From: Psammoneis japonica
Lineage: Eukaryota
DNA length: 64,000 bases
Direction of reading: 5' to 3'
NCBI GenBank assembly: GCA_008632985.1
Contig: QPGO01000003.1
Span: forward strand, 558,001-622,000
The position numbers were made by a program, and so were the translations under genes. Every line of letters starts with the position of its first letter. The stretch's first letter is position 1. The notes under the pieces were generated by a model. That model saw nothing but the letters and a program-made list of their open reading frames with translations. It was not told the origin of the DNA and did no database searches. Shown one piece after another: positions 16,692 to 47,833 of the stretch.

Positions 16692-19404
16692 ACCGTCTCA
16701 AGCGTTGCAGTGAGTTCACGAACATGTCCATCCCATCTACATTTGTAAATAGTAAAATCTTTTTTCATTTGCTGGATTCCGTTTCAAAACTTATTCTTAA
16801 CAGCAAAATGTTAGAAAGCATGGCCGGGATCATGGTGCCACCCACAGCAACACTGGATAAAGAAGCCTCAGAAAAAACATTCTTCACAAAAAATTTTGAG
16901 CACAGTCCGGCACCCTCAGGCTAGAGAAGGCATGCAAGGTTGCCAATCCGAGGCAAACACCAACTTGTGTTCTTTGTGCCACAGCACTCTGCCCTTGAAG
17001 CATTTTTTTTTTCCTCTTTGTTGACATCACAGTCGTGTGCAAAATGTGTGAGCAACTCATTGTTCATCATTGTTTGTGCCATCAGTCTGTTTCAACAAAC
17101 ATTTTCACTAGTTTGGAATGAGAGATCTTGGCACATTCCTGTGCAGCTTCATCTCCTTGAATTGAATTGGCTGTTCTCTCTCTTTGCACACCTGAAACAG
17201 GCCCAGAAGGGGTTCAGCGTGACTCCACAACACAGATCAACAAAAGTGGACCCAAACAACATTCCAGCATTTGGAGCCTGTCTCATGTGATTGGTGAAAG
17301 AGCACAAAACAATGCACTCCTGTGGCTCCATCATTGGAATGTTCTGGCAGATTGTGCACAGCTTTGAAGGGAAACACTTTTGAGCATCTGTCATGGCACA
17401 GCAATGACGGCAGTTGTCAATTTCTCTCAAAAGTGTGTGGGATGCACTCAAACTTTGTTGTGTGTGAAGTGCAAGTGGCAAAATGTAAAATGAACAAGAG
17501 GCCAGGCAGAGATGGATGGCTTCTCATTTGGCCAGAGATGCTCAACAAGCCACATCATTTTCCAAGCCCAGCCGGCATTCTTGTGCATGGTTCTTGCCAG
17601 CAGGCTGTGCCAAGGGGTTGACCTTGCCTCTCAAAGGGCTTCTGTGAAATGAACAGCTTGCCAACCTTGAACACAGCTCTCTTGCTCCAGCGACTGTTGC
17701 ATCATTGCTCATCACAAAACCATCATGGAGCCTGCTGATGGGTTCGCCACAAAATTGTGTCAACTTTGCTCCTTCACTTTTTGGCAACCACAGAAGCTGC
17801 CCCAGACAACAATTGCCACCTTGTCCAAATCTTCCACTGAATTGGAGTGCACTTCATGGATGTTGTTGAACAATCTCTTGGCACATGTGTCTGTGCCTTT
17901 GACCCTGCTGAGCCTGTCCAAGCCTTGACTTGGTTGCTTGACTTTGACAGCACATCCAAGAACAGGGGGTGTTGGCTTCAGGGCATCATCATGCCCTGGG
18001 GTTTGTGACAATGGCTGTTGCACTTTGTCTCCAAGTTCTTGTGGGACCCCCCAAAAATCTTCACATTCTTGAAAAAACATGGTGCCAAGCCACGCACAAC
18101 CACACCATCCTTTTTCCCAGTGCTTGCCTTCATGACTTGCAGGGGCAACAACTCTGATGCACCATGATGGTGGCAACTGCCACAGCTCCTTCAAAATTGA
18201 AGACAGGGTCAGCCATGAGATGGATCAAGACATTGAAAATGACATTGAAAAGAGACAAACTGCTGGCCTCTGCAGTCCAAGGTGGCAAGAAAAGTGCCCA
18301 CAGCTCCTCTTTGGTTCAGAGCACCTTGTTGCCTCCTTCCTTCTGTCTCCACCACATCCTTGTCACCTCATGCCTCTGTTTTGAGACACAGGTCTAACAA
18401 GCACTTGACTCTGCCAGCTGGCCCAGTTGTCTTCTTCTCCAGTTGTGTGTTCCATGTCACCTCACTCCATTGCCAACAACCTGCTCAGCCATCCAGCACT
18501 TGGTGGACCAAGTCAGGAAGAGGGCTCATCTTGGTCCAGATGCATCCAAGTGGTTGTTCCGGCAATCCATGTGCTGGGGGCAATTGGAGGAGCAGTGTGT
18601 GCCTTTCAGGTGGCAGGCAAGGCACCACATGGCACTGATGTTGGAGCACACCGGGGAGTGCAACCCCTTTCTGGGTGCAGCAGCACTTCACTTTGTGTGG
18701 GTGCACTCCAGGGTGGACAGTGGAGTTGTCTCCTGCCTCCCCAAGCTCTGCTTGGCAAAGTTGTCCAGCACTGGGTGTCATTCCCATCAAGTGTGGTGCC
18801 ATGGGGGGCACCACCAGCACTGGGCCCATGATGTGGTTGAGTGGCAGATGGCAAGCCACACTTCCATGAACTGCTGTTGCCTTGTGCTGTGATGCTGCCC
18901 CGGTGAAGGTCAGAGGCTGGTCAGTGTGCTCCTGATGGCAAAGCCAGTGCACCATCTCTGCTTGGATGCAGCAATGAATGTCCACAACAGATGAGGTGGA
19001 ATGTTGGCCCATTTTGGCCATGAGAGGTCCTCCTCAGCATGTGTGTCAAGGTCCATTTGCAATGCCCCCAAGTGACACAGCAAGGGGCAGTTGGGTCCCA
19101 GTGGTGCAGCTGCAATGACACACATGCCGCTCTTGTGTGAGCATCAGATGGCATCCAGCATGGTGGCTGCCTGCCTTGGCAGTGTCAGGTGCCTCAAGAG
19201 TGAGCATGTCTGCAAGGGCCGGGCAGCTCTTGCTGCCATGGATCTGGCAGCAGATGGCATTGGTGTGGGCATTTGCAAAGCTTGATCTCTGGCATGGCAA
19301 GTCCAAACAACAGCAGGCTCAGACCTTGGGTGATCAACCCACAGATCTGCTTGGACAGGGATTGTTGGCTGCTGGTGGGACAATGGGGTGCACTGGTGGT
19401 GGTG

Positions 19405-22400
19405 GCCTTCGATGCACGAGTCACACCATGGAGGCGCTTCGTTGCGTGATCACAAACAGTGATCCAACACATCTCGCCATTCAACCCAACATGGTCTTTG
19501 ATGCGCTCAGTGTTCTTGGAGTGGAGACCAGAAAAAGAAAAGTCTGTGGTGAGACCTTGGTGGGGTTGGGTGGCAGTCAAAGCAGCATTGGGTCCAGCAG
19601 GTTCCTTCATCTGTTTGGCCCGGACACATGTGGGGCAAGTGTCAAGGGGAGATGTGCCGTGTGCAAACTTGGGGACACCATCAACATGTTCGTGAGCGTG
19701 GCAAAGAAAGTGATCACTGGGGTGTCCAAGACGTTGATGCCACAAAAGGCATTCCGCGTCAGCCTTGAGGGATTGGATGGGAACATTCTTCTCGGCATGC
19801 TGCTCAAACGGGATGTCTTGATGTGCTCGGGGGATCAACTTCCTTTCCATGCAGAGAGCATCATGTTGGCGTTCACGACATGTTTCAATCATGCAGGCCG
19901 AGACCGCTTCACATTCATCCGCAAAGGAGGGGTCACTTGCCTTGAGGCACTCGATTGATGCGTTTGGCTCATCATGTGATTCTGGGAGAATGAGTGGGTG
20001 AGCACAACACTTGCCATTGATCAGTTTCCCATGAATGACAATGTCCTGACTCTTGCACAAACGATGCCGTGCAACAAACTTGCAAGCACCGAGATCATGG
20101 AACTTGAGGATGCAATCAACATTGCAGTCTGTGCGACGGGCACCATTCTGACGGAGCAGAAAGCACTCATCAACCAAGGTGGATTGGAGCTGTGGGTGGC
20201 AATGTGCACGAATCTCAACATGGCCATCGGGGTTCTCCGCAGGGATGCGAAGACATCCAAAGCCGACTGGGACAGCTTCATGTCCAAGAGCTGGATTAAC
20301 AGCAAGCGGGCATGGGGCGGAAGGAGCAAATGCTTGGCATCGATGCAGGAGATCACGATCTCCAGTGCAGGCAATGTTGGCACCAGTGTCAAGTTGAGCA
20401 CAGCGCTCATTCGGGGCAAACTTGACACCATTGACAGCGCAGGCAGTGTGGAGGAGATCTGGTGGATCCAATTCATCATCATGCAGTGAGCCAAGCGGGG
20501 CAATGCGGACAGAATTCACTGTGGCAAAACCGTCCTCAACAGCAATGTCGTCACAGGTAAGATCAATGAACTCGGCAAATTCACATTCCTCTAAATCTCT
20601 CCTCCCCTGTTCTAAAGAGTCGAGAACAGGATCAGTCTCCAATGTGCTGTCAGGGAGAATGGGATCATCATCAGGCAACTTGGTGGTGTCAGGAGAGACC
20701 TTCGAGTTGGGGGTGCAGTCCATGTCAGTCGTCGAAGAAAGAGGCAGCACAGTGGCAGATGACAAGACGGTGAGTCCCTCTTTCACAGTCATCCCGCTGA
20801 CATTGGTCTTGTCTCGGTGGGTGGAGAATGGGCTGCGTTGGAGATCCGAAACTAGCTGCGACGGCCCGACCGAAAATCCAGAGACTGGACACCAGCACTG
20901 GGCGGAGAATCAGATGGTCCGTGATGAGGCGGCAACAAACCTTGTGGTCCTTGAAATTCAGAGGCTCGCACAGCCGCTTCGCGCTTCAAGAATTGACAAA
21001 ACCGCACGTGGAAGCCCTTGATGTACGGGTTGTTGTTCAAGACAGGACACTCATGGAATGAGTGTTCTTCAGAACAAACAAGGCATGGTTTCTTGGAGGC
21101 CTCTGTGGGAGCAACCTTGAGTTTGTGCACCGAAGCGGAGCAAACATGATGAAGAAGACGATCTTCATCTGCAGAAGGTACGTCAAGGTCATTCAATTCA
21201 GCACAGAGGGAGTCAAAGGCATCCTCGGGGGAGTGATCGATGTCGGCAGCTTCTGGCAGCTCGTCCGCATCCTCTGCAATGGGAGGGACATCCGGGACAG
21301 TCAAGGAATTGACATCGGCAGTTGTGCGACGTGCATCCCCTGGGTGTCGATCCCATGTACGGTGTGGATTGCGAGGAGTCGTACGAGTTGCAAGAGATGG
21401 ACTGTCCGACTGACGAAGGAAGTCAGAAAGGGTCTCAACAATCTGTGCATCCGTGCACTTCTTGAGCACAGTGGGGGACTTCCTTTCGTCTCCAGCAGCA
21501 CGGGACAAGAACTTGGAGCATTTGGTGTTCTTGACAAAAACAGTCATCTCTCGAGAGTCATCCAACGTAGAGTCCGCATTAAAGACACAAGCACGCAGCT
21601 GTAGAAAATCCTTGAAACATGAGTGACAGTCCGTCAAGGACAGATTTCCTTGAATGGGGTAGGAATCTACCAACCCAGCAGCCTCGTCATCGAAAGCCGG
21701 GTGGTTCTCGCAGACAATTTGCTTGAGAGCCTTGTGGCCGTTGCCACAACATGAGGCAACAATCCGATGACACTTGCTGTTCTTGGGGAACATGTCCGAC
21801 TTGGAAAGGATCTTGGGAAGGGAACTTTGTGCTTCTTTACAATGAACATGCATTCGTTGGGGCAAGTCATCGTCTTTGCCATTGCCAATCTCAAAACCCT
21901 TCTCACCACCGTGGTCCTTGGTGAAGCACCACAAAGGATGCACGCAGTGTCCCGAGTCAAAGGAGTGACGTTGAAAATTTTGGTGCCATGCACGTGTCCC
22001 AGCAGGAGAATCGTCATGGCATGTTGGAGGTTCTCTGAATGGCATCTTCTGGTCGGGGGCCGAGCTCATGATAAACAGGGTGCCATCATTGAGAATGATG
22101 CGGTCAGACGCATCAACACAGTGGCGGAATCCATGGTCACAAGGGACCAGAGAGCTCTTCAGGGTGACGGCACCACTTTCTTTGCGGTCGTAGTGTGTGC
22201 AAACATCGGGAGGCAGGGTGTCAGGATTGAAGAGACACTTGGATGCTGTGGAAGTTGTAGGAGTTCCAGAGGTCTTGCCAGAGGCAGCAGAAGGCGGAGC
22301 GTGGCTCGACGCAAACTTGTCAAGGGCGGTGATCAAGTCATTCACACCAACTGTCACAGGTCCGGAACCAGTCGTAGATGATGGTGTGGGCTGTGGGTTC

Positions 22401-23287
22401 TGCAGGCAGGGTGTGATGGAGAACTCCTTTGAATCCTTGTAGTTCCACATCATGTTGGGGTCAATGTCAATGTGGTGTGCAGAGATGATGACGCATGTGA
22501 TTTGATCGTGGTTCCGGAGATTGGTCTTGATGATCAACAAGAGAGATGCGGGCATCATGTGGATCGCACGAGGCCTGGCAGAGTCAACAATTCTGAACGC
22601 AGCTTCATCCACAATCGTCTTGACAGGCTGCATGTCCGCAGGATGAACCGTGCAAGGTGGGAACGCCGTGTTGACAAGGTGATCTCGAAACACATCAACA
22701 AAATCTTTCTTCGGTTGAGCATGTTCTGGATTGTCAAAGAACGGGTCCAGATCAAATGTTGAATCCGCGTGTGTCTTGTTCAAGGTCGCATGGAAATGAG
22801 GTGTCGTTGCATGTTCTTGAAATTCACAACAGATCTCTGCAATGGACGTCGGAGCGGCCTTTGCAAGGTCGGGAGACGCCATGGTTTCACTTGGTGAGGG
22901 CATTTTTGGTCATGCACATGCAGAAATCTGGTGTGTTGCTACAATTGTGAAAAATGCCGGGAAAGTGAGAAAAAAATTGTTGTTGGAACAGATGATGAGG
23001 CTTGCTCGGTCGGCTCACAAAACAAACGAATCAAGGTGGAAAGCTTGGCGCAGAGTTTTGTGGCACAGCGCAGGGCCACAACCTGACAGAATGCCGAAGG
23101 TCAATGATGACAGAGGCATGAAAGACTCCCCAAGCACCAGGACTGTGATGACACGAGTGCCAGCAGATGAGAAAGTGAGAGGCAGATCTCAGAGAGATCT
23201 GCTCGTCTGTCCAAATGGTCCGGTCATCATCCGCGTGCAGTCTGTCCATCGCACGACAGGCAGACTGACAGGTGGCACAACTTGACA
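19405..23287 (-). mobile_element. Ty1/copia (CoDi-like) LTR retrotransposon, 3'-truncated: putative 5' LTR ~23037-23287, gag 20852-22903, protease/integrase ~19405-20792
   Basis: Gag zinc knuckle CLVCSEEHSFHEC; protease AQLDTGAN; pre-integrase LWHQRLGHPS...CPTC; integrase start DFSF. No RT or RNase H recognised downstream. LTR limits are tentative. Confidence 0.85.
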
Positions 23288-24599
23288 CTTTTACATTGAG
23301 CTTTTTTGCTTGGGCCGGGTGTCCAGCCCTCCCTGCAAACACAAGAAAACAGCAAAGGCACCCTTTGCAATGACAAGCACAGCAACTGAACTGTCCATGC
23401 CATCTCCTGTTCATCCTGGTTCTTCAGAAGAATGACCAAGGGAAATGTGAGACAACAATTTCCCATGGCAAATGATGGCAGCATGTTCAACATGCATGTG
23501 GGAACACAACAGGTTATGAGCAGTGCTTTGACACTTTGACTTCTTGAGGCCAGCAATGACGTCATCACATGTGCTGAGTTGTGTGTGTTCATGACAATTC
23601 CCACCCTGCAATGACCCTGATTTTTGAGATGCCTGGAACCATCAAGGGCGAGCTTTGAAATTTTTCAGCCATTTCCCTGCCAGGAAAAAGAGGGCACTTC
23701 TCTTTGTTTTTGAAAGCCCATTTTTCACTTGTGCACTCTGCAAACACCGTGGGATGAAAAATGACAAAAAAATCAAAAAGAATGGCCTGACAATTGTGCT
23801 GCAAACCAAAATGTGCAAAACCTTGCCCAAAGCAGTTTGGACTTTTTTGTGCAGCACATGATCAACAAAATGTAAGTGTGGCAGCTGCCCAGTGTGTGAG
23901 GCCCCACCTGGTGCTGGAAGGTGCCACAACTGCTGTGGGCATCATCATCTGGGGTGCAAACCAACTCCTTGTTGACTCTGGTGCTGCAAATGCCAGAGAC
24001 AAGGGATTTGCCCCCAACAAGGAGCTGAGTGGTGGTGGTGCACCCAGAGTCAATTGCAAGAATGTCCATGCACACACAATGCCAGCAACCAGTGCCACCA
24101 GCTCATTGCTGCAATGAATGTTCAGAGCCTGGTGGCTGGGAGAGAGTTGCAAACCTTCTTCAGACAGGTGCCCATGGGTGTGCAACAGCATTGCACAGTG
24201 CAATCAAAGGTGCAGTGAATGGCATCAGTTGGTGAGAAGCCAAAGCTGGCTGGGGCAAAGGGCCTCAAAGTTGGGATCTTGAGAGGCAGCTGAGTGAGCA
24301 CTCTGCAACTGCTGCAAAAGAAGCTGGAAGTCTGGTCAAGCTGTTGCTGCACAAACCCAAACATCCAGGTCAGTGGCTGACAATTGCAAACCCAAGTTTT
24401 GGGCAACAGAAACAAGACACAACCTTCAAGAGCACTCCCTGCACTTCTGGCCCATGCACTGCTCTCACAACAGCTGGGGGCTCCTTTTTTGTGTTTTGTG
24501 CTCAGGGTGCTGCTCTCTAATTTGCCAATGTTGTTCACAGAGCAGCCAAGAGCAGGCCAATGCAAGCACTGTCTCTTGAAGCAACACTTGAGCAAGTGG

Positions 24600-27500
24600 T
24601 GCCAGGAGCCAGAGCATCTGTTGTGTGCCTGCACCAAGAGCATCACACAACAACATCTTGTTGTGATGCTCTTGGCCCTTGCCAGAAACAAGTTTTTGCC
24701 TTTGACCTCTTGTGAAATCTGCCTTGACATCAAATGCCAAGTGACAGCTGGTCCCTTGACAACCTCTCTGGTTTGCTCCAGAGCACGTGCTTTTTTTCAA
24801 TCCACAATGATTGTTTGGCACCTGCCTCTGTTCACGCCAACAATGAAGGCATTGCCACTCCCCTTCATGCAACAACCTTTGCCATTGAAGTTGAACAGGA
24901 TGAGCACTGCACTGTGGGGAAAGCCTTGTCACATGCTTCCGACAAGCTTCCAACCAATGTGGTCATGGCAAAAACATGATGCCTTTCCCCCTTGGCCTTT
25001 TGCAATGTTCCTGTCAAAACCCAGGCTCAATGCAATGACACCACCTTTGTGGTTCCTCCATTGTGCACTTCTCCTGACATGATGTTCTGCTTCAAAAACA
25101 AGCTCAAGGCTTTGAAAGGAGTGCAAGAAATTTTTCTTCCCACCTTGGTCAACAGACGATGCAACATTCTGGTCAATCACACTGATTTCAGATCAGCCAG
25201 AGCTGCAATCTCCACATGCATTTTGAACTTAATCCCAAATCTCCTGAACAAATCCCAACCTTCTCCTCCCTTTCTGGATCACCCCCAAGAAGTTTCTGGT
25301 GTCCTTGAAGAACAATCGGACAAGAGCAAATCTGTCGTGTTGGCCAGCATCTGCAGTCTTGAATCCCTGACCTTTTTGGATGTTTCTCCCTTGACAGACA
25401 CCCAAGCTTCTGGTGCACATCATCCTCCTCCGCTGCCATCTCACCCTGGCAGAGGCTGTGCAGGGAGAGGCTCAGGTTGTGGTGCTCCCCAGGGCTCTTT
25501 GGTTCCTCCACAGATTTACACTCAGCTGTCCTCTTGTGCTTCATCAACTTTCGGCCATTCTGGATGTCCAGGCACAACTTCTCCCCAGTGTTCCTGTGCT
25601 CAAGCCACTCAGTCTGTCTTGAGCTTTTCTCTCACTTCAACACAAATGGCTGAGGTGCAACACACTTTGTCCAAGATGCAAGAGAAAAATGACAAGGCTT
25701 TAGAAGAGATCCGCCAATGGCACTCCCAGGACATGGAAGCATTGAACTCCATGTTTGCCAAACAACACACCCAAGACATGGCAGACTTGCAGTCACAGCA
25801 TTCCCAGCAACTGGCTGGTGTGCAGGCACAGATGGATCGCTCAGAGCTCCACCAGAAAACATCCAAACAACATGGAAATGCCAGATTGCTCTGGAGATCT
25901 TTGCAACAAGGAGAAGGATTTTTATGAAGGGGTTGGACTTTGCTGCCTCCACCCCACAAACAATCAGGCATCCTCTGGATGTCTCTCCATGTGCACGTTG
26001 TTGCTTGCTCTCACCCACATCTTTCACCACACATCTTGGTGCTGACAATTTGTTTCTCTTCCTGCATTCACTTTGATGCATTGCTCTAAGCCCCAGTCTT
26101 CTTCTCAGAGGAGCGCGGCCCACTCATGAGCATTGAAGTTTACTGCAACTGCTCTGCACAAGCCTGGCAGTCCATTTTAGATGGCAGACACTTCAACCCC
26201 CTGCAGAACGTCGCATTGATTTCTCTCACCTTTGAACAAATGAATTGATTGGTGATGATCTCAAACCAAAGCTTCCTCATCACACTGGACTGTGTGCCTT
26301 CAATGCCAACAGGTGTGAATTGGACAAAAGAGGTGGAGATGTTCTGGGCCATTGCCAGATTGCCAATGAGATTCAAGCTGATGCAGTTGGCATTTCTGAA
26401 GCATGCCTGGACACTGTTCAGCATGACGTTCTTTCACCTTGTTGGTCCACTGTTCAAAACATGCAAGTCATGGATGGAGCACATTCTCGTGCAGCTCAAC
26501 TGCTTTTGCAACTTGATGCAAGCCCAGAGGCACAGCTCTTTTCTTGGCAAACTCTATTTCTGCAAGATGTTGGAGTCAGGAATCAGACCCGCTGGGTTGC
26601 CAGTCCATCCAAGTCTTTGATGGATGCAATGGCTCACAAGTCATGTTTGTGTCGTGTTGTCATGTTTGTTCAAAGAACCAAAAGATTCCTGGTTGCACCA
26701 CTGCCTGTGCCCAGCAGGCATCATCATTGTGCCAACAAGGCCACCAAAACACAGATCCTTGGAAAGCTTTTTGCTTGGATTTATCTCGATTGCTCCAAGA
26801 TTTTCTCACAGGTCAGAATGGCAAGGTGATCCTCTTTGGAGATTTCAATGCTGACTTTGTGGTCAACACTGAATCTCTGGCATTGCTTTCACAAAGATTT
26901 AATTTGTCAGATGCACTCATCAAGAACCTGATGGGCAACATGGAATTTTCAACATGCACTTGAGGTTCAAAGTGATTAGACTGCACTCTTGCTGCCCCAG
27001 GCGCCCTGGCCACTGCTTGTTTCAGAGGCTGCGAGGCTTTTGGGTGTCATGTCACTTCTGATCACTGCACCTGCCACATGGATTTTGACACTTTGGCCCT
27101 TTTTGGAAACCCCGCTGTTGATCTCTTGAAAGCCAGTCATCAGGACATGCTGTCTTCCTTGAAACCCCAAGTGACAGCACACCTTGATGCCATTGGTCCA
27201 ATGCTTGCCAGCAGGGACATTCTGTCCAGATCAAGAGCACTTCTTGAACTCAACACTCCCAATCATGAGTTGGCAGAGCAATTGGATCAAGACCTTCTAC
27301 AATTTTCTTTGGCCGCTGCAAAGAAATGTCAAGCACACCGTGAACCAGAATGGTCCATCAAACTGGCACAGCTTTGATGCCGAGTTTGCATTTTGAGCAG
27401 AGTGATTTCCATGATGCGCACTCACATCAACCATGTCAGCCATGTTGGGAACATCCAAAATCAGATTGAGGGCTCATTTGTCATTCCTGAGACCTTTGCG

Positions 27501-31950: not shown

Positions 31951-32299
31951 GCACAATTGCCAGTTGCTTTGGTGTGGCATCACCTGCTGGTGATGCTGTT
32001 TCAGGCTGATCGCCACATGCCCCTGCTGCACATCAGGTGTGCTGGGGGTGTGGGTTAGCTTGTTGCCAGAGTTGCAGGGCAGAAGCACAGCAGCACCTTA
32101 AAAACAGATTTCAGGTTTTGTTTTGGGACACCATGTCTTCCAACATGGTGGCCAGATCCCTGCACTGTGCACAAAATTTGCACATGATGTTCCTCTCATC
32201 CATGAGAGGGTTCTCCCACACACTTGTTGCACTGCCTGGCTCATTGAGCACATTTTGGGTGTTCCACACAGCTGCCAAGGACTGCAAGGAACAAAGGGA

Positions 32300-35200
32300 A
32301 AGAGAAGGCTGATGAGTGGGGCTTCATGCATGTTGGCTGGCTGGCCAGAAGGGACCCACTCCTGCTGGAACCAAAAAAACTAGATCTGCTGCCTTGCACA
32401 GCTGTTTCTGCCACTTGGGGGTCATCAATCTTGAGTGCAGAAAGATGTGGAAGGAGATCTGATGTTTGATGTGAGCCATTCAGACAAGTTTCTCTAATGC
32501 CACCCCATTGCTGCCATGGGTGGTGGTGCCCACTGCCAGGTCCCTGACTTGAACTCTGGCATCTCAATGGCCTCAAATTTGGGGCAATCCCATCCGGCAA
32601 TGTCACGACCCTTCTGAAGCCAATTGAAGGGGGGTGAGGAGTTTGGGGCCAGGTGAGCCTGCCCACAAACAAATCCACCAAAATAATTTGGGAGTGGCTG
32701 CAAGTCATTGCTCCAAGGTGCAAAGGCATGAAAGAAAGCATCTTTGCTCCAACACTTGTGACACCTTCAGAAAGGACCCCACAAGACACTCCATCAGGCA
32801 GTCCCTTCTTGGGCTGTCATGCGGCCTCCTGAGACGTGTGCAAGGTGAAAAACAAAGCCACATTTGGCCTCAAAATTTTGCAGGCAAACAACCTGTTCAC
32901 AGAAGCATTGGGCTGGATGAAGTGCCCTTGCACACTGCAACTTCTAAGATGGAATTGTCAGTGACAAAATGCAGAGTGGCTCCTTTCAACTCTCCCTTGT
33001 CCCCAAGCTTCTCAATGGCATCAACAGTGTCAGACAACTCACTCCAATTTGATGAGTTCTCCAACTTGTCTTCACCCCACATGCCCACATGGAAGAGGAC
33101 AGATGCATCTTGGGGTCTCAACAGAAAGCAAGGACTGGGATGCATGCCCATGAACAAACAGGTCCATTGCTCCTCCAGCCTGGGAACACGTTCCTTCCCA
33201 TCACCGGATGCTTCTTTTGGACCTTCTCTGCCATTCAAGAAATCTCAGGTGCAGCAACCCAGATGTGTTGACGTCTCCAGTTCCAAGGTGGCACCCCTTT
33301 GACAAAGATGGGGGCTCCATTCCTGGCACAAAGCTGCTGTTCCTTGTTGGCCCAATGCCATGCCAGAAAAGAAGGGAGGGCCCAAGGTCCCAGTTCCACC
33401 ATGTGCTCCCCAAAACCTTTTTCACCACCCCCTGTTGATGGCCTTTGCCACTCCCGTGACTGCAGATTCAGCAAGGTGACCCATTGTGTGCCACACTGAC
33501 ACCTGAGACACATCAAAAACAAATGCAAAGCACAAAGCCTCCACCACTGCAAAGCCAGAGAGCACAGAGCTGGCAAGATGTTCCCAAAAGAAGGGAACAA
33601 AAGAGCAACACACTTGTCCTAAAGCCAGCATGGAGGCACTGCCTCATCATCCTTTGCCACCTTGGCAACAACCAAAGACACATCAATCCACAAGTGTGGT
33701 GGGTGCTGCTGGAGGGTGGGCAACCAGGTGCCCAAGCAAGTTGAAAAGGCACCAGACACTGGGGCAGCCACGGGTGCTGGCACTCCCACCAAGGAGGCTG
33801 GAGCTGGACCCTCTGAATTGGTGACAGAGATGACCGCCTCCACCGGGATTGACAAGATGTGCAATGGGACCGCAATGGCCCCATGTGACCCTTGTGCTCC
33901 AATGCCTCCAAAATGTGACCCAAGCAGAATTGCAACAGGAAATCCCATGCAGCAAGAATTTCATTCAGAGAAAGAGCACAGGAAACCCATCCAGCAGGAG
34001 ACCAACAAGACTGGTGCCTTGCCAGGTGGGCAAGATTCCACAGATGCAAAAGATCACTCTCAACACAAGCCTCACTCAGAAGCCACTCCTGCTGCTGCTG
34101 AAGCACCAACCAATTTACAATCAACAATGTGCCCAACAGACTGGTGCAAGCCCCTTGCAAACAGAGGCACCGGGGTGTGCTGCCAGAACACCAAGGTCCA
34201 AAAAGAGGCAACCCCACCAACTTTAGCATGTGACACTCCAAAATGTTGAAGATGCCCCAGATCCCCTCAGGCCACATGGGACACAAAGGGTGCAACTGCC
34301 CAAACAACTCAAGAAAAGAGGCCAGACCTGACACCAAAGCAACCTCCACCATTGTGATGGTCTGGTGCATGGCTGGCCATGAAATCTGGCTTGATTCAGT
34401 CCTGGGTTGAGACAAGAAGGTTTTGAGAACCGGCTTGCTGCATGGATGTGAGTCAGACTCATCTAAAAACAAATGGATGGATGGATGGCCACTCTGGCTG
34501 CCAGTCACAAGAAGAGAAGCCATGCAGGGGGGAGGGGGCAAAGCAACAACCAGAGAAGAGCATGTGAAAGAGAAGGGTTGTTGTCCCTGAATGACATGCC
34601 TTGGGTCAGGGAGGCCATCAAATGACAAATCTGACTCAAGCTCCAACTCTGAGTCACCAACCAACCCGTTTGACAGTCACTTCTTCTTGCTCTCCAGAAG
34701 TGTCTTGATCCATTTGGACATTTCCTTGAGCTTGTTCTGAAACTTGGCAAGCTCCACATGGGCTGCATCACCCCTGGCCTGAGCCAACTTTGCTTTGGAA
34801 CTTGCACATTTCCAGCTTTCTCAGTTGGCTTTTTGACCAATGCCTGGAGGTCAGCAACCACCTCAAACCCCAAATTTGTTGCCAAAAATTTAACATGCTT
34901 CAATGCCACAGATGGGTGGCCAGCAAAACCATGAGTGGTGCACTCCACCATGACATCTTGAGCACAAGAACTGCCCACAAGATCTTGCTGCCTGCATCAT
35001 CAGGGTTGTTCCCTTTGACAGTGATGGCAAATGCTCCCAAGTGGGCCTTGTGAACATCCTCAAAGACCCAGTGAGCTGATGTTGTGGTGAGAAACTAAGA
35101 TGTTTTGTCCAAGAACTTGCTCAACATCTTGAGAGACTGGCAAGTTGAGTCCACAAACTGAGTCAACGCATGCAGAAAAGTTGCTGTGACTTTGACAAGG

Positions 35201-37000
35201 CATCCCCAACTGCCTGGCTCTCCAAGCATTGGCCAATGTCCTCCACAATGTCTGATTGCAGCAATCAAATCTTTGACAAAATGCTTTGTGCCCATGTCTC
35301 CAGATGACCAGTGATCGCAAGCAGGGTGCTGTCCAGTGGGATGGATGCAACCCCATGGCTTTGGTCAATCTCACTGTCCCAGAATCCAGAGTGCATGTGC
35401 AGCATGCGGCATTGAAAACTGGCCAAAGTGCAAGCATCCTCCTCCATGTCTGTGTTCATGCTCATCCACTTTGACCACTGAGACAAGAAATTGTGGAGAG
35501 CCACAGGTTTGATGCCTTTGACACAATCCACTGAGAGTGCCACATCAGCCAAGCACCCATGAGCCACGGAAGGGAATGCTGCACCATCAAAGCCTGGCAA
35601 TCAGTGTGCAATGACATTTCCACCCCCAAAAACTTGATTGCCATCTTGTCCAAATTAGAGCAAAGCTCACTGGCACTTTGATCAAGTTGAGCCCACCAGG
35701 CATCCACAGAGGAGGTGCTTGTTTCCGGCATCCCAAAACTCAAAACCAGTGCCCCCCCATGCTGCTCCTGACATTTTTCTCACACTCAAAATTGCAGCAA
35801 AACCACCAGCCTGGCTTTGGAGGGCTTGCAGCCTGGCATTGAATGTGCTCACAAGACAATTTGAATGATTTGTCCAGTCTGCCCTCACATGCCTGAGCTT
35901 TGCCTGCACTTCCCTTGACATTGAAGTTAGATCTGATCCCACAAGCATTGGCATCAACATTTGCCAAGGTTCCCCAAGAAACAGTTGGCACCTCCAAGGT
36001 TTGTTTGAACCCAGCAGGTGGACAAGAGCCCAGAGTGGCATCCACTTGATCCAGCTTGTGGCCAAGCAACTGCACCATGGCATCAGCAGACTGGATTTGG
36101 GACTTGGTCTCAATGCCTGGCTCAACCGCCACCATGCCCAAATCATGAAGCCCATCCTCTGCCAACTGGTCGACTCAAGCCAAAGCAGATGGGCTCTTGT
36201 TTGCTGGTGGGAACTGGGCTGGGGCAGTGGCAATTGCTTTCTGACACACACTGAAAACCAGGTGAATGCTCTCCCTTCTCTTGGGAGTGCCAACTCAGCA
36301 TCCTTGATGTGAGCAGGTGTCTTGAAGTTGGCCGCTTCCTTGCAATCCCACAACAATGCTCCAAACTCATCCTCTGTGAGACAGTCGTCACCATTGATTC
36401 TTGTCTCACCAACACCTCCACTGACAAAAACCCACCATCCAAGATTGGTTGGCTGAACCCAGTGTTGGGCGTCTTGAGGACAGGCCCACGCTGCTGTCAC
36501 TGGACAATGATGGCAATTATCCCCTTTGTGCTTCACCTTGCATTCTCTCACCTTTGAGACAAAACACAGCACCTCCTCCCTTGATTCCAAGGCACCACAA
36601 TGTGTTGGTCCCTTCCAGCCAGGTGATGCAACAATGAGGCACATGCCATGACAAAGGAGATGCACCTTTGCCCTCCACCATTGCTGCACCTTGGGCAGCC
36701 ACTCCTCATCCAAAGAGCCAAAAAATCCAACCTGCGGAACTTGGGCTGGAGGCTGGCCACATGAAACTTGGCCTCTTGCAAATGGCTGATCAACAGCCGG
36801 TTGGGGGGGGGGGGCATGAATTCTCCCATTTCTTTGTCAACATCAGCCTGAGAATCACCATGACCACCAAGACCCGACTCAACATTTGAGCCAGACAATC
36901 CAGATTTAGCCCCTCCTGACCCCCCTGAAGCTCTGCCCATGGAGGGCAAGCCTGAGGAGAGGATGATGCAGGAGAGCTGGACAAGAATGGGCCACATTTA
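32300..37000 (-). mobile_element. DIRS/Ngaro-like retroelement relic
   Basis: RNase H-like SSNWSELSDTV...LHFVTDNSILEVAVCKGTSSS (32897-33238) resembles DIRS-type RNase H. Upstream ORF fragments are decayed; boundaries approximate. Confidence 0.55.
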
Positions 37001-39589: not shown

Positions 39590-42450
39590 CCATGGCACCA
39601 AGAAAAAGGAAGCATGCAAACTCACCAGCTGCTGGTCACAACACTGGCAGTTGCACCAGTGTCACCGGTGGCTGTGGCAGAGGTTGTGGCAGAGGTGCTG
39701 CTCACTCAGCTTGAACACCAGGCCAACCTCCTTCCACCAGACCACCAAGGCAAGGCTCCAGAGTCAGCCCTCATTGTCAACAAGGCTCTCCATCCACCAC
39801 TGCTCCACTGGCTGCCAACCCTGCAGCTGCTGCCACCAATGCAGCCTCCACCAACAAAGAAGTCAACTCCTTTGATGATGCACCTGAGAACTGTTCCCCT
39901 CTCATTCAAAAAGAGGATGCTGAATTTCTTGATCAGCATGATGAAGTCCCTTCTTGCAAGAGACTCAGAATCTGCTCAAAGTCTCTGAGTGTCATGCCAT
40001 TTGTGGCATCAACCCCAACCAAATGTCTGGCAAAGATTGCAGGATGTGGCTTTTGTTTTGCTGGCAGATGCATGGCCTGCACAAGAACCAAAACAAAAAG
40101 ATGTACAAGAAACTGCAGAAGAAGCACAGAGACCATGGTGCAAGAATTGCCGCAGCCAACAAGACCACATCACATCTCCAGAAAGCTCAGAAACAGACCC
40201 TCCATGCAAGCCAAATGACAAATTTGGAGACCAACCTTGTGAAGAAGGTGGGAAACTTGAAGGTTGGTTGTTCTCTTCTCTTCTCTCCAGGTTTTCCATC
40301 AAAACAAGAGATCGGCAACACCATGAATTGTCGCTCACTCCTGGATGCCAGTGTCAACTCAGAATGTCCCTTTGCCTTGATGGTTTGGGAACATGTCTTC
40401 CCAAAAGATCCAAAGAATGACAAGGACTGGTCCTCAGACAACAAATTCAACAAACCTGAAGTTCATCAAAAGTTTTGGGAGAAGGTGGGCCCACTGGCCC
40501 TCAACTCATGAATCAAGAATGAAACACCTTTGCTTCCCACCTCCGCCCAAATCAAACACATTCCACCACCCAAGGCCGGCATTGCCTTGTTTCATGCAGT
40601 CCTGGACAGTGTTTTTGAGAAATTTTGCAGAGTCTGCAGTTCCAATCACGGCAATCCAGGTGATGCAAACTCTCTTCCCCTCTGTTTTGACTTTTCTCTC
40701 TGTCTCTCACGATGGCTCTGTGGTTCATTTGTCTCTCACAGGTCAGCGCACTCCTGTTGACTTGTTCAATGCCCCTCCTGCCGGAATTGAACAACTGCCA
40801 AGGAAAACAGAGCCATTGCGCACGGCTGCAATGCAGCCTGTCTCCATGTCACCTGTCACTTTGGGAGATTGGCCCCGTCTCTGTGGGTGAATTTTTTTTG
40901 CCTCTGGCTGTGGTTGTGTGTCTCTGTCATGTTTGAACACCATTTGAACACCACAATCAGAGCTGCCAAAAAGTTGCTGATTTTTACACCAAGAACAATG
41001 GGCTGGCTGTGACCCACTGTGTGAAGCCCGCCTCTGCCTGAGTGAGCAACCCAATGTTTGATGAATGTCTCCATGTGCTGTGACCACTGCATGTTCAAAA
41101 GCACACTTGGCTTGGAGATGACCAATCATCAACCGCGGCCCTGTCCAACAGAGTGGCTCTTCTCACAATCATGTGCCTGATTGTGTTCTTGATGAAAATG
41201 TGATCCCTGGGAAAATGCTGGTTGTGTGTGCATGGAGCAAAGGGAGTGGTTGGCAGTGGCGTCACTCTCCCTGATTGTGACTCTGTGTGTCAGCAACAGA
41301 ACTCAGCTGCTGCAGTTGATCCAAGATGCTGGAATGGGAGTTGCAGTGACAAGCCATGTCATTGTGGCCTTTCACATTGCCGATTGTCATGCACAATCAA
41401 AAGTGGAGGTGAGCCAAGCCAAGAGATGGCAGGACAAAATTGGGAAACCACTCTTTTGCTTGGACAGTTGAAGCAACTCAGTGAATGTCTCGCGCAGAGT
41501 GCTGTGATGAAACTTGATGTGCATCTCCTGTCCAAGCTTTGACTGACAATTGGCGGTGCACTTGTTGCTTGTCTTTGGGTGCGGCGGCACCATTCCCAGT
41601 GCTGACCAAAGGGAGTGGCTGCAACAACACTCATTGTTAAAATTTCCCAAAGTCATGAGAACATGTTGTGCTTGCAAACAACCAATGTTGTCACAAATGG
41701 CAGAATCATCAAACAGCACAGCTGGGCAAACACAACATGACCCAGATGGGCAGCCATTGCCAAGTTGAGCAAGCAAAGATTTGAGATCATGCTTGGCTTG
41801 CTTCCACCAGTCACCAGTGTTGAGAGGGTCACAAATGTGCTCATTCGTTTGGGGGCAGTGCTTCTTGTTGAAATCCGCTGACAAGACTGGATGACCTGGG
41901 GATCTGAAAAACCCTTCTCACACAATGAAGAAAGGAAAAACGGCACACATGCATTGGGGGAAAATTGGGACCCACATCCCATGTTCACTGTGGAGCAAAT
42001 GGGCTCTAGTCCAACAAAATCAAAATGCTTGGCTTTCATGCACTGCAAGGCTGTGGAGCAGGACAGAGACTTGTGCTCACAGTCACTCTCCTTGGCACGT
42101 TTAGCCTGGGAAAGAAAAGCCTCATGCAAACCATGGGAAAGACAATGCTTCTTCATCATCACAACCAACTCTTCCTCCACTGGATGAAGCTTCTTGGTGG
42201 CATTGGTTTCTCAAATGCAGGGAGGTTGCAACAGTTGAGCTTCTTCCATCTCCTCCAACTCAAGTGCATCAAGCAAAACAGTGCAGTGCTTCATCGTCAT
42301 TGTCATTGTCAGGGAGAGAAGAGGATGACATGGATTGTTGTGCTGAGAGCATGTCAAACTCCTCCTTGAGGAGAAGAACGTCATCATAAAAAATGTGCTC
42401 ACCTCTTAGAGCTGGGGCAAGACACCCAGCACTGAGTTTGTCAGGCTCTG
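39590..42450 (-). mobile_element. Plavaka-like DNA transposon relic (transposase on minus ~40900-42200; convergent basic ORF remnant on plus from 39591)
   Basis: LNTGDWWKQ...PAVLFDDSAICDNIGCLQAQHVLMTLGNF...WSALGMVPP resembles the Plavaka transposase core. Opposite-strand remnant reads MAPRKRK...GCGRGCGRG. Confidence 0.6.
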
Positions 42451-43699
42451 GCGTGGCAGGAAAATTGGTGGAGGCATTGTTAAAGGAACATTCCAACAGC
42501 AATTTGGTGGAGGAGGGGTCACCATGAGTGGAGGGTTGATGCTCATGATCACTGCCATTGGAAAAGAGGGAGGACAGATCGCAGCCATCAATGGACAGAG
42601 ACAACAATCCTGTGGTGCTTGAATTGAGAGATTGATTGGAAGGCAATGATGAATCCAATGAGGGTGAGGCACCATTGTCACTCAGAGAGCAATGGGGGAA
42701 GGAAGGTGCATCATCAACGCCACAATGAAAGAAGGAAGAGCACTGGGGATGCCTCTGAAAATGTCATTGGAGATCACACTGATCATTGTTGTCAGACATC
42801 TGACTGGGACAGAGTGGATTGTGACAGGGGTGTGCCATTGTCTTTGGTGGAGTTTGTGTTGGCATGCAGCTTGTGGTGTGTGCAGGGAAAAAAAGGACAG
42901 ATGTGGCACAAACAAAGCAAGACAGAGAAGGGAACCAGCTGACAATGGGAAAGAGAAGAGTTGAAATGCATGCAAACTTAACAAGTTTGCAAATGCACAT
43001 GCTAAATGGAGATGGGTTCCAGTCCCAGGTGGGACTCCGTGTGACATTGGGCCCACAGAATTCTGCGTGCGAGCTCCCCAGTAAATCTGTCAAGCAATGC
43101 AAATGCAAATGGAGGTCCCACCTGGCAGAGCTGGAACACGTCTGGAGAATGGGCAGCTCAAAACAAGAACAACCAACTAATGAGCATTGGTGCACATGCA
43201 CCAAGAAGATCAGTGCAAAATTTAGGCAAACATGTGGAATTTTTTTACAACTGACAATCATCACTCTGGTCAAGCATGGAAACATGTCACAGACAATTTC
43301 TCAAACCCGATCTGGATGGCTGTCCAGGAATGCACAGAACGGAGTTGCTCACTTTTCAAAAATGCAGCTCACGTGCTGATCTGCACAAAGCAGACATGTG
43401 CAAAGTGTGCAAGAACAAAATGTGGTGGGGCTGTTGATTTTTGCTTTTTGTGGAGCACACTTGGAGTTTTCTCATTTGATCACATTGATGAAGCACTGGA
43501 TGAGCACACAACAAGAGATTGTGATGAATGGCTGGATTTTCAATCTTCGTGGAGGATCATTGTGGGAATTCTTGGCACAGCAAAGCATGGAAGGGCATTT
43601 TTCCCTGGATTTGCAGTGCCCTGTGTCCTGTTGAACTTGTGTGCACCATGACATCAGCGGGGGTTGATGCATTTTTTGTGTGCAAGAACCACAGCAATG

Positions 43700-46400
43700 T
43701 CAATGTGCCTGACACATGAGGACAAACTTCCCATGTTGTTGTTGCAATGAATGTGAAAATGTTTTGTTGTGTTCAGCCCACAAAGTCTTGTGCTGTTTTG
43801 ATGCAAGGAGAAAGGTGCTGGAAGCTGGATTTTTGTGAGAGTGTGACCCCATGGTGGGCATGCGCAGCACCACTGGCCAAAAGAGAAGGAGGGGGCAAGG
43901 GGCCCAGCTGGCATGGGCTGCTGCGACACTCTTGCAGCTTCTTGGCAGGTGCAAGGACATTGCTTGGTGCATTTGGATGGAAGACAAAATTGCTGCCTGC
44001 AAGCATTTCTTGAGCAAAGCTGCCACATGTGGTGGGCTCAGCTCAGAGGTGCAAGTGGAGCCACTGGCCAAATGGCCAGATCAAACTGGTTCTAATGCAG
44101 GCACAGAGCAGGGCCACAACATCATGCAGAGGCACCTGGCAGCAATGCCAGAGGTTGTGAAACTCAAATTTGCCAGGCTGAGTGTGGCAACAGAGTCACA
44201 AAGAAGGCTGGTGATGTTGTGCATGATGCCAGGCATTGTTGCTGAAATTCATGATTTTTTGGGGTGTCAGAAGGACCCTGTGGGGGAGCAGAGGAGTTCA
44301 ACTGAATGAACGGGGGCAAAAGCGGGACAGATGTTTGGGTTGCTGGACAGCTCTGTGCCAATGACTTCTCTCTATGAACTGCACTTTTCTGTGTGGTGAA
44401 GGTGAGCATGGCAAATGCAGATGTCCAAGCAGCATCAGCCTGTGGTGAGCTGCACATGCTGGCCAGGTAAAAAGGTGTTGTGCCAGACAGTGTGATGTGA
44501 ACAATGTGCAGCACAGCACATTGCTCTGCACAATGCTGCCCATCAGCTGAGTGTGGATCAGCACTCAGCATGAGCAGTGGGCCCCCATTGTGGCAGGTCA
44601 CCAATCAGCTGGCAGTGTTGAGTGGGAGCTGCACACACAACAAAGTTGGCACAGCAGCTTCTGGTGTGCACTGGCACCCAGTGGGGTGCCACACTGTTGC
44701 AGCCCAGGCAAGGGGTCGTGCGGAGGTTGGTGCAAATGAGGAAGAAGCCATTGGCTTCATAACTGGCAGCATCATGACAGCTGGTCAGAGTTGCCTTGAG
44801 CAGGACCAGTTCTTAAATCCAGGCAGGTTTTTTGTCTGACAATGCACAGAGCACAGGTTGCAAAAGTTGTGAACTCAGTGTGCATCAACAGTGAGTTGAA
44901 CCCAGGAATCAGGGGCAGTGTGTTGGAGGGTTTTTGAAGCTCAGGGGACAGGCCTCATGTGCTCTTCTGTGCACTGCAATTGCTCTTCCATGCACTGCAA
45001 TGGCTGGACTCTGTGCAGTTCTCTAAGCTGGCTTTCACAATCTGCAATGACAGCACCATGTTTGCAAAAATGTGTGGGCAGCGGGTGCAGTGTTGAGTGC
45101 AAACATCATTTGCACCAGGCATGAAAAGTGGTGTCATGGACTGGGTGTTGACAATCTGGCCCAAAGCTTCTTTTTGTGTGGACCATGTGGCGCCACACTT
45201 GCAGAGCTCCTTCTCAATGAAAATGGGCTCCTTGCAGGCTTCATCACAAGGATTGAGCGAACAAAAAAAGCCGTTGATGGCAAACATGACAACTCAGCAC
45301 ACATTGTGACATGGGCCTGATGTGACTTCTTGCACTGCACCAATGAAGTCATCAACACACAGATTTCTGTTCATTGCAGATGGCACTGCCTGTGCAGACA
45401 AAGGTGCAGGTCAGACACAGTGCACATCAGGGCAGTGAAACAGAAGCATCTGCTGGGATGACTGCAGTGTGTGTTGAACACTGACCAGTGAGCAAGTGCT
45501 CCAGTGGCTGTGTGGCTGTGTGCTTGACAATGACAGACCAAACCCCCTTTGGCCATGTCAGCTGCTGTGCTTGACAGTGTGACCCAAAAGATTTGGGCTC
45601 TCTCTGGTGTGAACTGTGCTCAGCAGAAGCAGCCAGCCCAGCCAATCTTTGTGAAACAGACCCAGCCTTTTGATGATGGGTCAGCAAGCAGCAGTCATGC
45701 AGTGGAGCAGGATGAGCTCAAACACCCACCTGGCCAAATTGCATTGATTCCACATTGTGCCATTGGGTTGTGCTGATGGATTCACACCATGGAATGTGGG
45801 CCCAAGGACAGGGTCAGGGGACCACCCATGCTGCCGCAGGACAATGCAGGCAGGGCTCAGCTGCAAGTTTGGCACATTTTGCACTTCCATGTGCAGCACC
45901 GCTGCCCAGAAACCATTGGCCAGTGTCCAGCCATGTGGTCTTGTGGGAATTTGATGGGCTCAATGGCAGACTTGCAGATGGCCAGCTGCTGTGTGCTGAG
46001 ACTGGCTCTCAGGAGGGCTCCCCACTCTTCTCTAAAACTGCGCAGCCAGATGAAAGAACAAGAAGCAGCTGAGACCTTTGTGGTGCAAAATGTCGGCATC
46101 TTTTGCAGTGCATTTGCTCACTGAAAGGGTGCTCACAATCACTTTAGAGACAACAACTGTGTGCCCGGCATGGCATGGTCATGTGTGCCTGCAAATTTTT
46201 TTTGTTTTCCTTGAAAGCACCATCTTCATCTGTGATCTTCAGCCATTTTGCACGCTTGGCAAAACTGAGCAACACAAACTCTGCAGCTCTGATGGACAGT
46301 TGCAGGTGCCGGAGGTGCCCCTGAAGAGGCGGCCCAAAAGGTGTTTGTTGTGGTGCCCCAGTGAATCATAAAATGAGCTCCAGCTCCAGGTGGGATCTCA
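43700..46400 (-). mobile_element. Second DIRS/Ngaro-like RT relic
   Basis: LANGFW (like DLADGFY), CVDDFIG (like YVDDFI, ~45340-45360), EPIFIEK..ATWSTQKEALGQIVNT (like EPIS.KK..WSTRK.ILGW.IDT). Boundaries approximate. Confidence 0.55.
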
Positions 46401-47833
46401 CAGTGGGGAGCTGTGGGATGTGACATTTTGCTTTTTTGGTGTCAGTGCAAATTTTTGCCCATTCCCAAGTGACTTTGGGTTTGTTTTGAGCTCATTTGCA
46501 GCACAGTTGTTGGGCAATCCATTTGGCAACTTTAAATTTTTTTAATGCAGCAGCTGCATTCTCTGATGTCTGCAGAATGCGGCCATTCTCCAGCAGATTT
46601 TCCAAGTTGCAAAGCATGAAGAGATGTGGCAGCACTGCAAAAGTGGTTGTTGTTGTTTGTTTTGATGTCTGCAAGAAAAAAACTGGTCTGTCAGTTGGAG
46701 CCCACCTGTCAGCTGACTTTTGCAGCACTCAAATTGCCGTGATGTTTTCAGAAAAGAAATGACAGAGATGCTCAAACTGACAAAACAGCATCAAGAGCAG
46801 ATCTTCCAGATGAGGCACAAACGTTAAAATGACTTGCATTTCCCGTGCTGCACTGCGTCATTTTGACCTGCCTTGAAACAGCCCTGAGCACACTTGTGCA
46901 CCTGTGTCTGGCTGTCAGACTTGGGCAAGAGTTTGTTGGTCTTCGGAGTCAGAGCAGTGAGTGCATGTGACACGTGAAATTTGGACAGAAGGACAACCAG
47001 ATGCATTTGTCAATTCTTTTGGCTGCGCATGTGACATTTGGTGAGTTCAATTTCGTGCATCAAAAAGTTGTTGACAATGCTGCAATGATCATCTTTGTGA
47101 GTTGCAAGCTCTGTTGAGTTGTCTTGGTCTTTTGAAGACAACAATTTATCTGCCATGTCACTGGCAAATAGCTGGAAGAACTTCTTCATGAACCGACTGT
47201 CGAACAACAATGCAGATCGCATGTTGGGCTCTCTGCAAGACATTCTGCATGAAACTCCCACAGAATCAAGCCATCAAATGCATCTCAAAGGAGACACAGT
47301 TATCCTTGGTGCATGCCAAGTGGCAGGGAACCCTGTTTTGCTCCACAACTGCACCATTGTTGGAGGTGCAAGACTCCAACTGCAACAGAGAGGATGCACG
47401 GCAAGTCTGAAAAGTTCAGCTCTGTTGTCTCACATTGCTGGGAAACCCCGGTCTGTCAGCAAAAAAAAAAACAAGGACAGTCCAGAAAAACAACCATTGT
47501 GCATGTTGTCAAAAGTTCGCAACAAGTGAACTCACTTGTTTTGCTGGGAGAGGACAATGGGACTCAGGAGAGTGTAGCCAACACACCTTGCCTGCAGGGA
47601 ACTGGTCATGGTGGAGTGGTGCAGCGACAAGTTCATGCGTCATAGGACTGTCCTGTGCTATGAAGAATCCATGTGGTCAAACAAAATGATTAGAATCTAA
47701 CGGAGAACACCTTCACTCAGAAAGTGACATGCAAAATACACTTAGATCAAATTGAAACAAGCCTTAGACACAAAGAAGAAAAGGATTATGGCTGATTCAG
47801 AACCTGGACTTGACAACCAATGCAAAACCCATC

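Follow-up and report, generated by a model that had tools for sequence, protein, structure and literature searches.

TpA-depleted blocks beside normal genes in Psammoneis japonica suggest a TpA-specific transition process separable from CpG decay

We analysed a 64,000-nucleotide stretch of Psammoneis japonica DNA (NCBI GenBank assembly GCA_008632985.1, contig QPGO01000003.1, positions 558,001 to 622,000 of the forward strand; hereafter the window, numbered from its first letter) and found that blocks of it have lost nearly all of their TpA (TA) and most of their CpG (CG) dinucleotides and are rich in TpG (TG) and CpA (CA), beside genes of normal composition. Two processes probably rewrote these blocks of dead repeat DNA, namely the decay of methylated CpG and a faster transition specific to TpA. 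We document here the signature and its regional limits, the direction of the change, its specificity for TpA, its independence of CpG loss, and its partial targeting of a retrotransposon family related to a copia element in the largest block. A preliminary description of this DNA had proposed a repeat-targeted TpA to TpG/CpA hypermutation, opposite in direction to fungal repeat-induced point mutation (RIP), as an undescribed genome-defence system. A region-limited process of that direction is supported by our results. The word "undescribed" no longer holds, since the available text of a preprint by Mettrop et al. (bioRxiv 10.64898/2026.01.13.699255) reports that in Bigelowiella natans integrated DNA of virophages and nucleocytoplasmic large DNA viruses (NCLDV) undergoes A:T to G:C hypermutation at TpA only; nor is the targeting of repeats shown, as much of the read-covered depleted DNA occurs, at 90% likeness, in a single copy.

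TpA and CpG depletion in bounded blocks

Block edges were set at 100-bp resolution, and observed/expected ratios were profiled in sliding 2-kb windows. Across three pooled blocks (36,403 bp), 147 TA were present against 2344 expected (0.063) and 486 CG against 2207 (0.22), with TG and CA raised to 1.77 and 1.76 times expectation, whereas the DNA outside the blocks (26,347 bp, positions 1-1250 excluded) retained TA at 0.60 and CG at 0.98. GC content was kept despite the TA loss (0.49 versus 0.47). These ratios confirm the near-absence of TA, the TG/CA-richness and the normal neighbouring genes that had first been noticed by inspection; the CpG loss in the same blocks had gone unmentioned. The main block extends from 16800 to 47600 (2-kb windows: TA 0.02-0.13, CG 0.07-0.69). 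The span for which hypermutation had originally been claimed, 16930-47640, is real depleted DNA but covers only the largest of the three blocks; it holds 127 TA against 1982 expected, 381 CG against 1857, 3352 TG against 1898 and 3431 CA against 1940, so that the combined deficit (TA 1855 plus CG 1476, or 3331) is nearly balanced by the TG+CA excess of 2945. Approximately 44% of that combined deficit is ordinary CpG loss, and a comparable share of the TG/CA excess is therefore probably CpG decay, which leaves the earlier account of the excess as a TpA product correct in part.

The second block (11800-15200; TA 0.02-0.14) carries the arms of an inverted repeat, and the third (51400-53600; 0-2 TA and 0-3 CG per 100 bp) a pair of direct repeats. 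A further stretch at 1-1250, cut by the window edge, is TpA-poor yet CpG-normal (TA 8 of 82 expected, 0.097; CG 66 of 73, 0.90; TG 1.45, CA 1.55); positions 1-1300, read through in six frames, contained no Pfam family, and it is possible that the TpA process reached 1-1250 only recently and that CpG there is still to be lost. In the 100-bp profile, composition switches at most 100-200 bp from the ends of the flanking open reading frames (ORFs). Ultraviolet or other diffuse damage was considered as a cause and rejected, because the gene edges are sharp.

With TAA and TAG lost, TGA is the sole stop codon left in the blocks, and the long ORFs found there are therefore probably false. In practical terms, such regions fill with long false ORFs that mislead gene finders, and the transposons within them escape domain-based annotation. 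Many ORFs of 150-390 amino acids in the blocks are rich in tryptophan, glutamine and cysteine (tryptophan, for example, 4.7-6.2%), as in the region 33516-36836 on the minus strand.

Direction of the change in a copia-type element

The only depleted DNA that is demonstrably transposon, 19266-20837, lies within a minus-strand ORF at 19197-20909 that encodes 571 amino acids from stop to stop, with a copia-type protease, pre-integrase and integrase N-terminal region (Pfam gag_pre-integrs, E 5e-8). HMMER returned 532 homologues of this ORF, which align over residues 164-504, from the protease motif through the zinc-finger N-terminal part of integrase; when 150 of them were used as tblastn queries, coverage was confined to 19266-20837, and the homology stops inside integrase. 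Among named relatives the nearest, at 41% identity, is a EukProt protein from Cylindrotheca fusiformis. As had been claimed from inspection, the ORF contains no tyrosine at all, and the gag-like ORF upstream of this pol fragment (20855-22909, minus strand, 685 amino acids) contains only 4 (0.6%), compared with 2.8-3.9% in five host ORFs.

Ten alignment columns have tyrosine as the commonest residue among the 150 homologues. At these, the window reads cysteine (TGC or TGT) in five, histidine (CAT) in four, phenylalanine (TTT) in one and tyrosine in none; nine of the ten are one TA to TG or TA to CA step away from a tyrosine codon, which bears out the observation that usual tyrosine positions here read cysteine or histidine. 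Other conserved residues were retained (glycine 18/18, proline 18/19, alanine 9/9, phenylalanine 5/5), and a control host ORF similar to PDAT keeps tyrosine in 11 of 12 such columns. Judged from these columns, a polarity from TA to TG/CA is supported. The same alignment places homologue arginine opposite window cysteine in 11% and opposite glutamine in 6% of pairs, and window methionine opposite homologue threonine, as CpG decay predicts. That such elements are natively free of TA is, like the sequencing artefact discussed below, highly improbable: a protease-integrase without tyrosine at ten tyrosine-dominant columns cannot be native.

TpA specificity in related copia copies

Metagenome contigs were scanned for relatives of the copia protein, which yielded 80 loci, 73 with TA observed/expected of 0.45-0.86 and seven at 0.15-0.43 with raised TG and CA. 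One family comprises 41 of these loci (76-93% identical over ~2.2 kb), and each copy was scored against the family majority. In the most affected copy (L052) the changes were almost exclusively A:T to G:C at TpA, with A>G at 36% and T>C at 45% of TpA sites compared to 2.6-10.4% in other contexts and C>T at 11% of CpG sites; a second copy (L029) gave 41% and 37%, 3.8-10.4% and 11%, respectively, and the least affected copy 1.4% and 0% at TpA with 12% C>T at CpG. The context-specific spectrum of copies against their consensus, which the preliminary description had proposed to derive, thus contains a TpA excess, here in a related family from other organisms. Targeting is uneven among the 41 copies, from 0-1.4% up to 36-45% of TpA sites, a result that belongs to these relatives and not to the window's own genome.

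Direct comparison of copies gave a parallel result. The 89 TA of one copy (L010) correspond in L052 to 14 TA, 27 TG, 35 CA and 13 other dinucleotides; between the two, 62 changes ran from TA to TG/CA and 3 in reverse, while CG changes were symmetric (27 versus 21). Four further copy pairs gave forward versus reverse counts of 103 versus 13, 61 versus 6, 62 versus 10, and 20 versus 6. Biased gene conversion was rejected as an explanation, given that A>G outside TpA amounts to only 3-7%. Separately, the contig of one locus (L019, positions 1-3711) has TA observed/expected of 0.00-0.20 in its first 2.8 kb and 0.77 in its last 0.9 kb; the switch falls inside the copia coding region and marks either a sharp hypermutation boundary or an assembly chimera of two copies.

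Separation from CpG decay

The CpG component of the signature (0.22 in the blocks versus 0.98 outside) has the form of 5-methylcytosine-type decay in transposable-element-like DNA with genes spared, and such decay covers the CpG part only. According to the excerpted text of PMC9998398, diatom transposable elements are CpG-methylated, and in Phaeodactylum this methylation is carried out by DNMT5a, which explains the CpG component. The likeness to methylated-CpG decay in diatom transposable elements accordingly extends to the CpG half, which follows transposable-element-like DNA and not genes; CpG decay cannot remove TA, whose loss is faster and separable from the decay driven by cytosine methylation. 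In the copia part of the main block (19200-22900) the ratios are 0.095 for TA and 0.62 for CG, compared to 0.02-0.11 and 0.07-0.22 in older parts of the block, and in the youngest-looking stretches, the copia part and 1-1250, TA loss is ahead of CpG loss. Across the 41 family copies, C>T at CpG ranges from 4 to 35% and does not rise in the most hypermutated copies, though the TA change varies greatly. This uncoupling in 1-1250, the copia part and the family copies shows the processes to be separate, the one at TpA being the faster.

An account without any dedicated system would invoke a spontaneous or damage-driven TpA lesion left unrepaired in compact heterochromatin. To our knowledge, no enzyme is known for the TpA process, and sharp gene edges would also be expected if repair differed from one chromatin state to another. 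Nevertheless, the extreme specificity (36-45% versus 3-10%), a TA loss that outpaces methylated-CpG decay, and family copies that range from ~0 to 45% while their CpG decay is much alike make this account quite unlikely, and the finding of mutations in only 11 of 15 B. natans lines, in the available text of Mettrop et al., points to an activity that can be switched.

Recent change in place on both strands

TG and CA are balanced in the blocks (4006 versus 4027), stand at 27 versus 35 among the changed TA of L052, and correspond to five cysteines versus four histidines in the tyrosine columns, which argues against editing of sense RNA followed by reverse transcription. Under that alternative, an ADAR-like activity would edit UpA in retrotransposon RNA, and the edited copies would then be reverse transcribed and inserted; in its favour, the sole identifiable element is a retrotransposon, and ADARs, which target double-stranded RNA derived from repeats, prefer a U immediately 5' of the A that they edit (discussion in Mettrop et al., 10.64898/2026.01.13.699255). 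Editing of sense RNA would yield TA to TG on the coding strand only, yet both products are equally represented, and the changes postdate a duplication in the locus and vary between a public sequencing run and the window at single-copy loci, as described below. The preference for a 3' T or C over G is also unlike that of ADARs, and we give the RNA route hardly any credence.

The inverted repeat arms of the second block (12741-13214 and 14565-15038) are 77% identical, with transitions making up 74 of 95 substitutions; at 16 of 81 TG/CA sites one arm has TG and the other CA, as expected if ancestral TA or CG was struck independently after duplication. The direct repeats of the third block (51454-51624 and 53039-53212) are 75% identical, and 27 of their 36 substitutions are transitions.

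In the public sequencing run (X1), 78% of sampled words of 14001-24000 were present. Its contigs, single-copy at ~57x, differ from the TA-free window sequence at 4 places in 3009 bp (16436-19444) and at 6 in 2492 bp (23206-25697). Forty of 266 differing places were listed, which amount to 35 events: 5 adjacent CA<>TG doubles, 7 TA<>TG/CA, 9 CG<>TG/CA and 14 other. None of the 40 falls in the gene island at 15303-17002 (~1.7 kb). Relative to the window, X1 also carries a 6-base insertion at 15302, just upstream of the ORF with the NAD_binding_4 domain, and several 1-base insertions in depleted blocks; the two sequences are not identical.

Heavily modified DNA can give systematic miscalls on some platforms, and X1 is perhaps not independent of the assembly; both considerations would favour an assembly or base-calling artefact, which the preliminary description had itself named as a way in which its reading could fail. 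Such an artefact is unlikely, as k-mer contigs at ~57x reproduce the TA-free sequence and metagenome contigs with several contig-name prefixes carry graded versions of the TpA signature.

Flanking context of the TpA change

The 127 TA that survive in the main block are preceded by T in 50% and by A in 5% of cases, and followed by A in 46% and by T in 9%; TG and CA sites in the block are without such flank skew. In the seven hypermutated family copies, the frequency of TA to TG depends on the 3' base (T 35%, C 30%, G 21%, A 10%), and the complementary counts for TA to CA are 43%, 36%, 17% and 25%. Expressed as adenine changes, TAT and TAC are favoured over TAG and TAA, with TAA/TTA largely spared, a pattern that we treat as a lead and not as a measurement.

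Content of the depleted DNA

The copia element resembles diatom Ty1/copia elements in its gag-like ORF, its protease motif and its pre-integrase/integrase zinc-finger region. Its gag-like ORF is multi-copy by read depth, has a Cys/His knuckle-like motif near the C-terminus (by eye in the translation) and matched no Pfam family. The run X1 indicates that 19-23.3 kb is multi-copy, and on the 5' side of the element a segment at 22749-23282 reaches a summed X1 contig depth of 6422 compared to ~57 in single-copy flanks, ~110 times the flanks and equivalent to roughly a hundred copies. This segment is possibly a long terminal repeat (LTR) of the element; neither blastn nor a purine/pyrimidine self-comparison found a second copy of it within the window. 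Complete Ty1/copia elements have the order gag-protease-integrase-reverse transcriptase (RT)-RNase H between LTRs. Here, unlike in such elements, integrase is cut short, the tyrosine codons are gone, and the window contains no RT, no RNase H and no second LTR; the element is a truncated remnant, cut off inside integrase.

Pfam was run on 197 of the 212 stop-to-stop ORFs of at least 90 amino acids in 11.1-54.1 kb, the 15 over host genes being left out. Inside the blocks these 197 gave only weak, sub-threshold matches, except gag_pre-integrs in the copia ORF, and the read-through frames of 25.2-31.0 kb gave no Pfam family; the depleted DNA beyond 19266-20837 is without a recognisable family. The five peptide motifs quoted in the preliminary description do occur at or near the places reported for them, but its readings of a long interspersed nuclear element and of an RT with the motif CVDD, like its other transposable-element labels, are not confirmed, there being no Pfam family in 23-47 kb. 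A GDFN...SDH-like endonuclease pattern was seen by eye in the translation near 26.8-27.1 kb and is unconfirmed. Apart from the two repeat pairs found by blastn, no further internal repeats appeared in the window, even in the transition-blind purine/pyrimidine self-comparison, and Rfam, tRNA and tandem-repeat searches of the window returned nothing relevant.

Comparison with known systems

Fungal RIP converts CpA to TpA and lowers GC, and it is dependent on repeat homology, premeiotic and linked to the enzyme RID. The present signature is like RIP as a putative irreversible inactivation of selfish DNA through context-specific transitions, in sharp contrast to genes, and unlike it in that TA is destroyed and not created, GC is kept, and a good part of the affected DNA is single copy; CA and TG stand at 1.76-1.77 times expectation. 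ADAR and APOBEC have RNA or single-stranded intermediates of replication as their substrates and leave a bias to one strand, and APOBEC changes C. Clustered deaminase-type transitions on selfish sequences are common to ADAR hyper-editing, APOBEC editing and the DNA studied here, but in the latter both strands are affected equally and in place, and A or T is changed, not C. The A>G change confined to the transcribed strand that would mark ADAR-type RNA editing fixed by retrotransposition was not seen in the blocks, in L052 or in the tyrosine columns, by the TG/CA and cysteine/histidine counts given above.

The closest described case is that of B. natans. In its mutation-accumulation lines, 231 of 302 nuclear mutations fell in two integrated viral regions; A>G or T>C accounted for 230 of these 231, the GC-biased ones all being on TpA, and the rate was ~6e-7 per site per generation, with mutations in 11 of 15 lines only. 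The available text also describes TpA-poor, CpA+TpG-rich clusters and transposable-element-type Pfam domains elsewhere in the B. natans genome (Mettrop et al., 10.64898/2026.01.13.699255). As far as that text goes, the two cases agree in a change limited to TA to TG/CA, in the restriction to DNA that lies beside normal genes and is non-host in B. natans and presumably so here, in a long-term loss of TpA with gain of CpA and TpG, and in the fact that only some lines or copies were struck; TpA-poor coding sequences of B. natans are, moreover, enriched in transposable-element-type Pfam families. They differ in the host, which is a chlorarachniophyte there and diatom-like here, and in the target, the sole identifiable one here being a copia retrotransposon. 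Depletion is near-saturated in the window (0.06, compared to a Rho of 0.45 in the B. natans NCLDV region), CpG is lost in three of four TA-poor stretches, and the TpA change shows a preference for certain 3' bases, unlike in the B. natans account; real-time mutation data exist for B. natans, and sequence comparison here. A term search of the available preprint text returned none of the words CpG, context and diatom. In a search of full-text literature, the B. natans preprint was the only relevant item, and no account of diatom repeats losing TpA was found.

Candidate mechanism and its weighing

On the two-process reading, which we hold to be probable, ordinary methylated-CpG decay to TpG/CpA would run alongside a TpA-specific change of TA to TG/CA, acting on chromosomal DNA in place, on both strands, and halting 100-200 bp from genes. 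An enzyme would be brought to silenced chromatin, where adenine at TpA would be deaminated to inosine and then copied as G, and mobile or foreign DNA would thereby be irreversibly inactivated via lost tyrosine codons and TA-containing signals. As the agent we favour, tentatively, an ADAT2/TadA-type deaminase acting on adenine in DNA; an ADAT2-like adenine deaminase is also the proposal in the available text of Mettrop et al.

Alternatively, thymine could be the base attacked, either as a modified T (e.g., 5-hydroxymethyluracil made by TET/JBP) that is miscopied as C or through T:G-to-C:G mismatch correction in methylated DNA. TA is its own complement, so that A>G and T>C give the same result, and CpG is depleted as well in three of the four TA-poor stretches, as would be the case for methylated DNA. 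In dinoflagellates 5-hydroxymethyluracil is enriched at TpA, and the depletion of CTAG in E. coli has been ascribed, as a proposal, to very-short-patch repair. Hyperactive T:G-to-C:G correction should, however, protect CpG, which stands at 0.22 in the blocks, and replication errors alone may not reach the rate of 6e-7 per site per generation given in the available B. natans text. On balance we judge the thymine route unlikely, though deserving of attention.

Several points weigh against the two-process reading or its adenine form. The evidence in this organism is sequence comparison; polarity inside the window is drawn from one truncated element and ten tyrosine columns, and the other ~27 kb of the main block is without a recognisable ancestor. 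The TpA spectrum derives from metagenome contigs of other organisms, which are possibly chimeric, and polarising by majority consensus is open to bias from subfamily structure. Differences between X1 and the window lie at fixed single-copy loci, their spectrum comes from 40 of 266 places, and X1, the library type of which is not on record, is possibly the sample behind the assembly itself. The context preference was counted on seven related copies and 127 survivors, some of which are maybe new TAs, and 1-1250, TA-poor yet CpG-normal, leaves the connection with methylation insecure. Finally, TA is self-complementary, and A>G on one strand is indistinguishable from T>C on the other.

If the two-process reading is true, a natural A:T to G:C activity at a set dinucleotide would add a new class to the genome defences of eukaryotes and might serve as a source of DNA adenine editors; its basis has so far been one preprint and one alga. 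That a diatom-like genome, far more completely, and environmental relatives carry the signature would indicate that the process is not the curiosity of one lineage and that retrotransposons are hit besides viral insertions; a process of the B. natans kind would then be known from a second, unrelated lineage. More speculatively, diatoms and chlorarachniophytes might share a chromatin-guided TpA A/T editor, a natural A:T-to-G:C base editor that disarms transposons and viruses, mirrors RIP and is widespread in the stramenopile-alveolate-rhizarian (SAR) group, a proposition that we regard as doubtful at present. Genetic work is feasible, as some diatoms are transformable.

Flanking genes and minor observations

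Between the second and main blocks lies an island of normal composition formed by a fatty acyl reductase-like host gene (15378-16688, plus strand; Pfam NAD_binding_4, E 4e-22), with 1-7 TA and 3-10 CG per 100 bp and a switch in composition within ~200 bp of both ORF ends. On its other side the main block is bounded by a cytochrome b5-fused desaturase gene (47837-49555, minus strand; Pfam Cyt-b5 and FA_desaturase), towards which TA recovers, with 3-5 per 100 bp from position 47600 or so onwards. The host genes take the form of long ORFs without interruptions. Among the best 120 matches of the host PDAT-like ORF, all named ones are diatoms at 43-48% identity, including Ditylum, Pseudo-nitzschia, Nitzschia, Fistulifera and Thalassiosira, and environmental proteins reach 71-76%.

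Three ORFs with Myb domains lie in series on the minus strand (8255-9301, 10012-11160 and 11164-11577). The last of these coincides with low TA at 10900-11500 (0-3 per 100 bp), which was examined as hypermutation and rejected, as CG and TG+CA are normal there; the low TA is probably gene composition. An ORF of 288 amino acids and normal composition (60605-61471, minus strand) gave weak, sub-threshold matches to helix-turn-helix domains of transposases (HTH_Tnp_Tc3_2, E 0.0016) and, if transposon-derived, escaped TA loss. A WW-domain ORF at 58844-59581 on the plus strand contains in-frame short tandem repeats with periods of 12 and 21 at 59059-59273.

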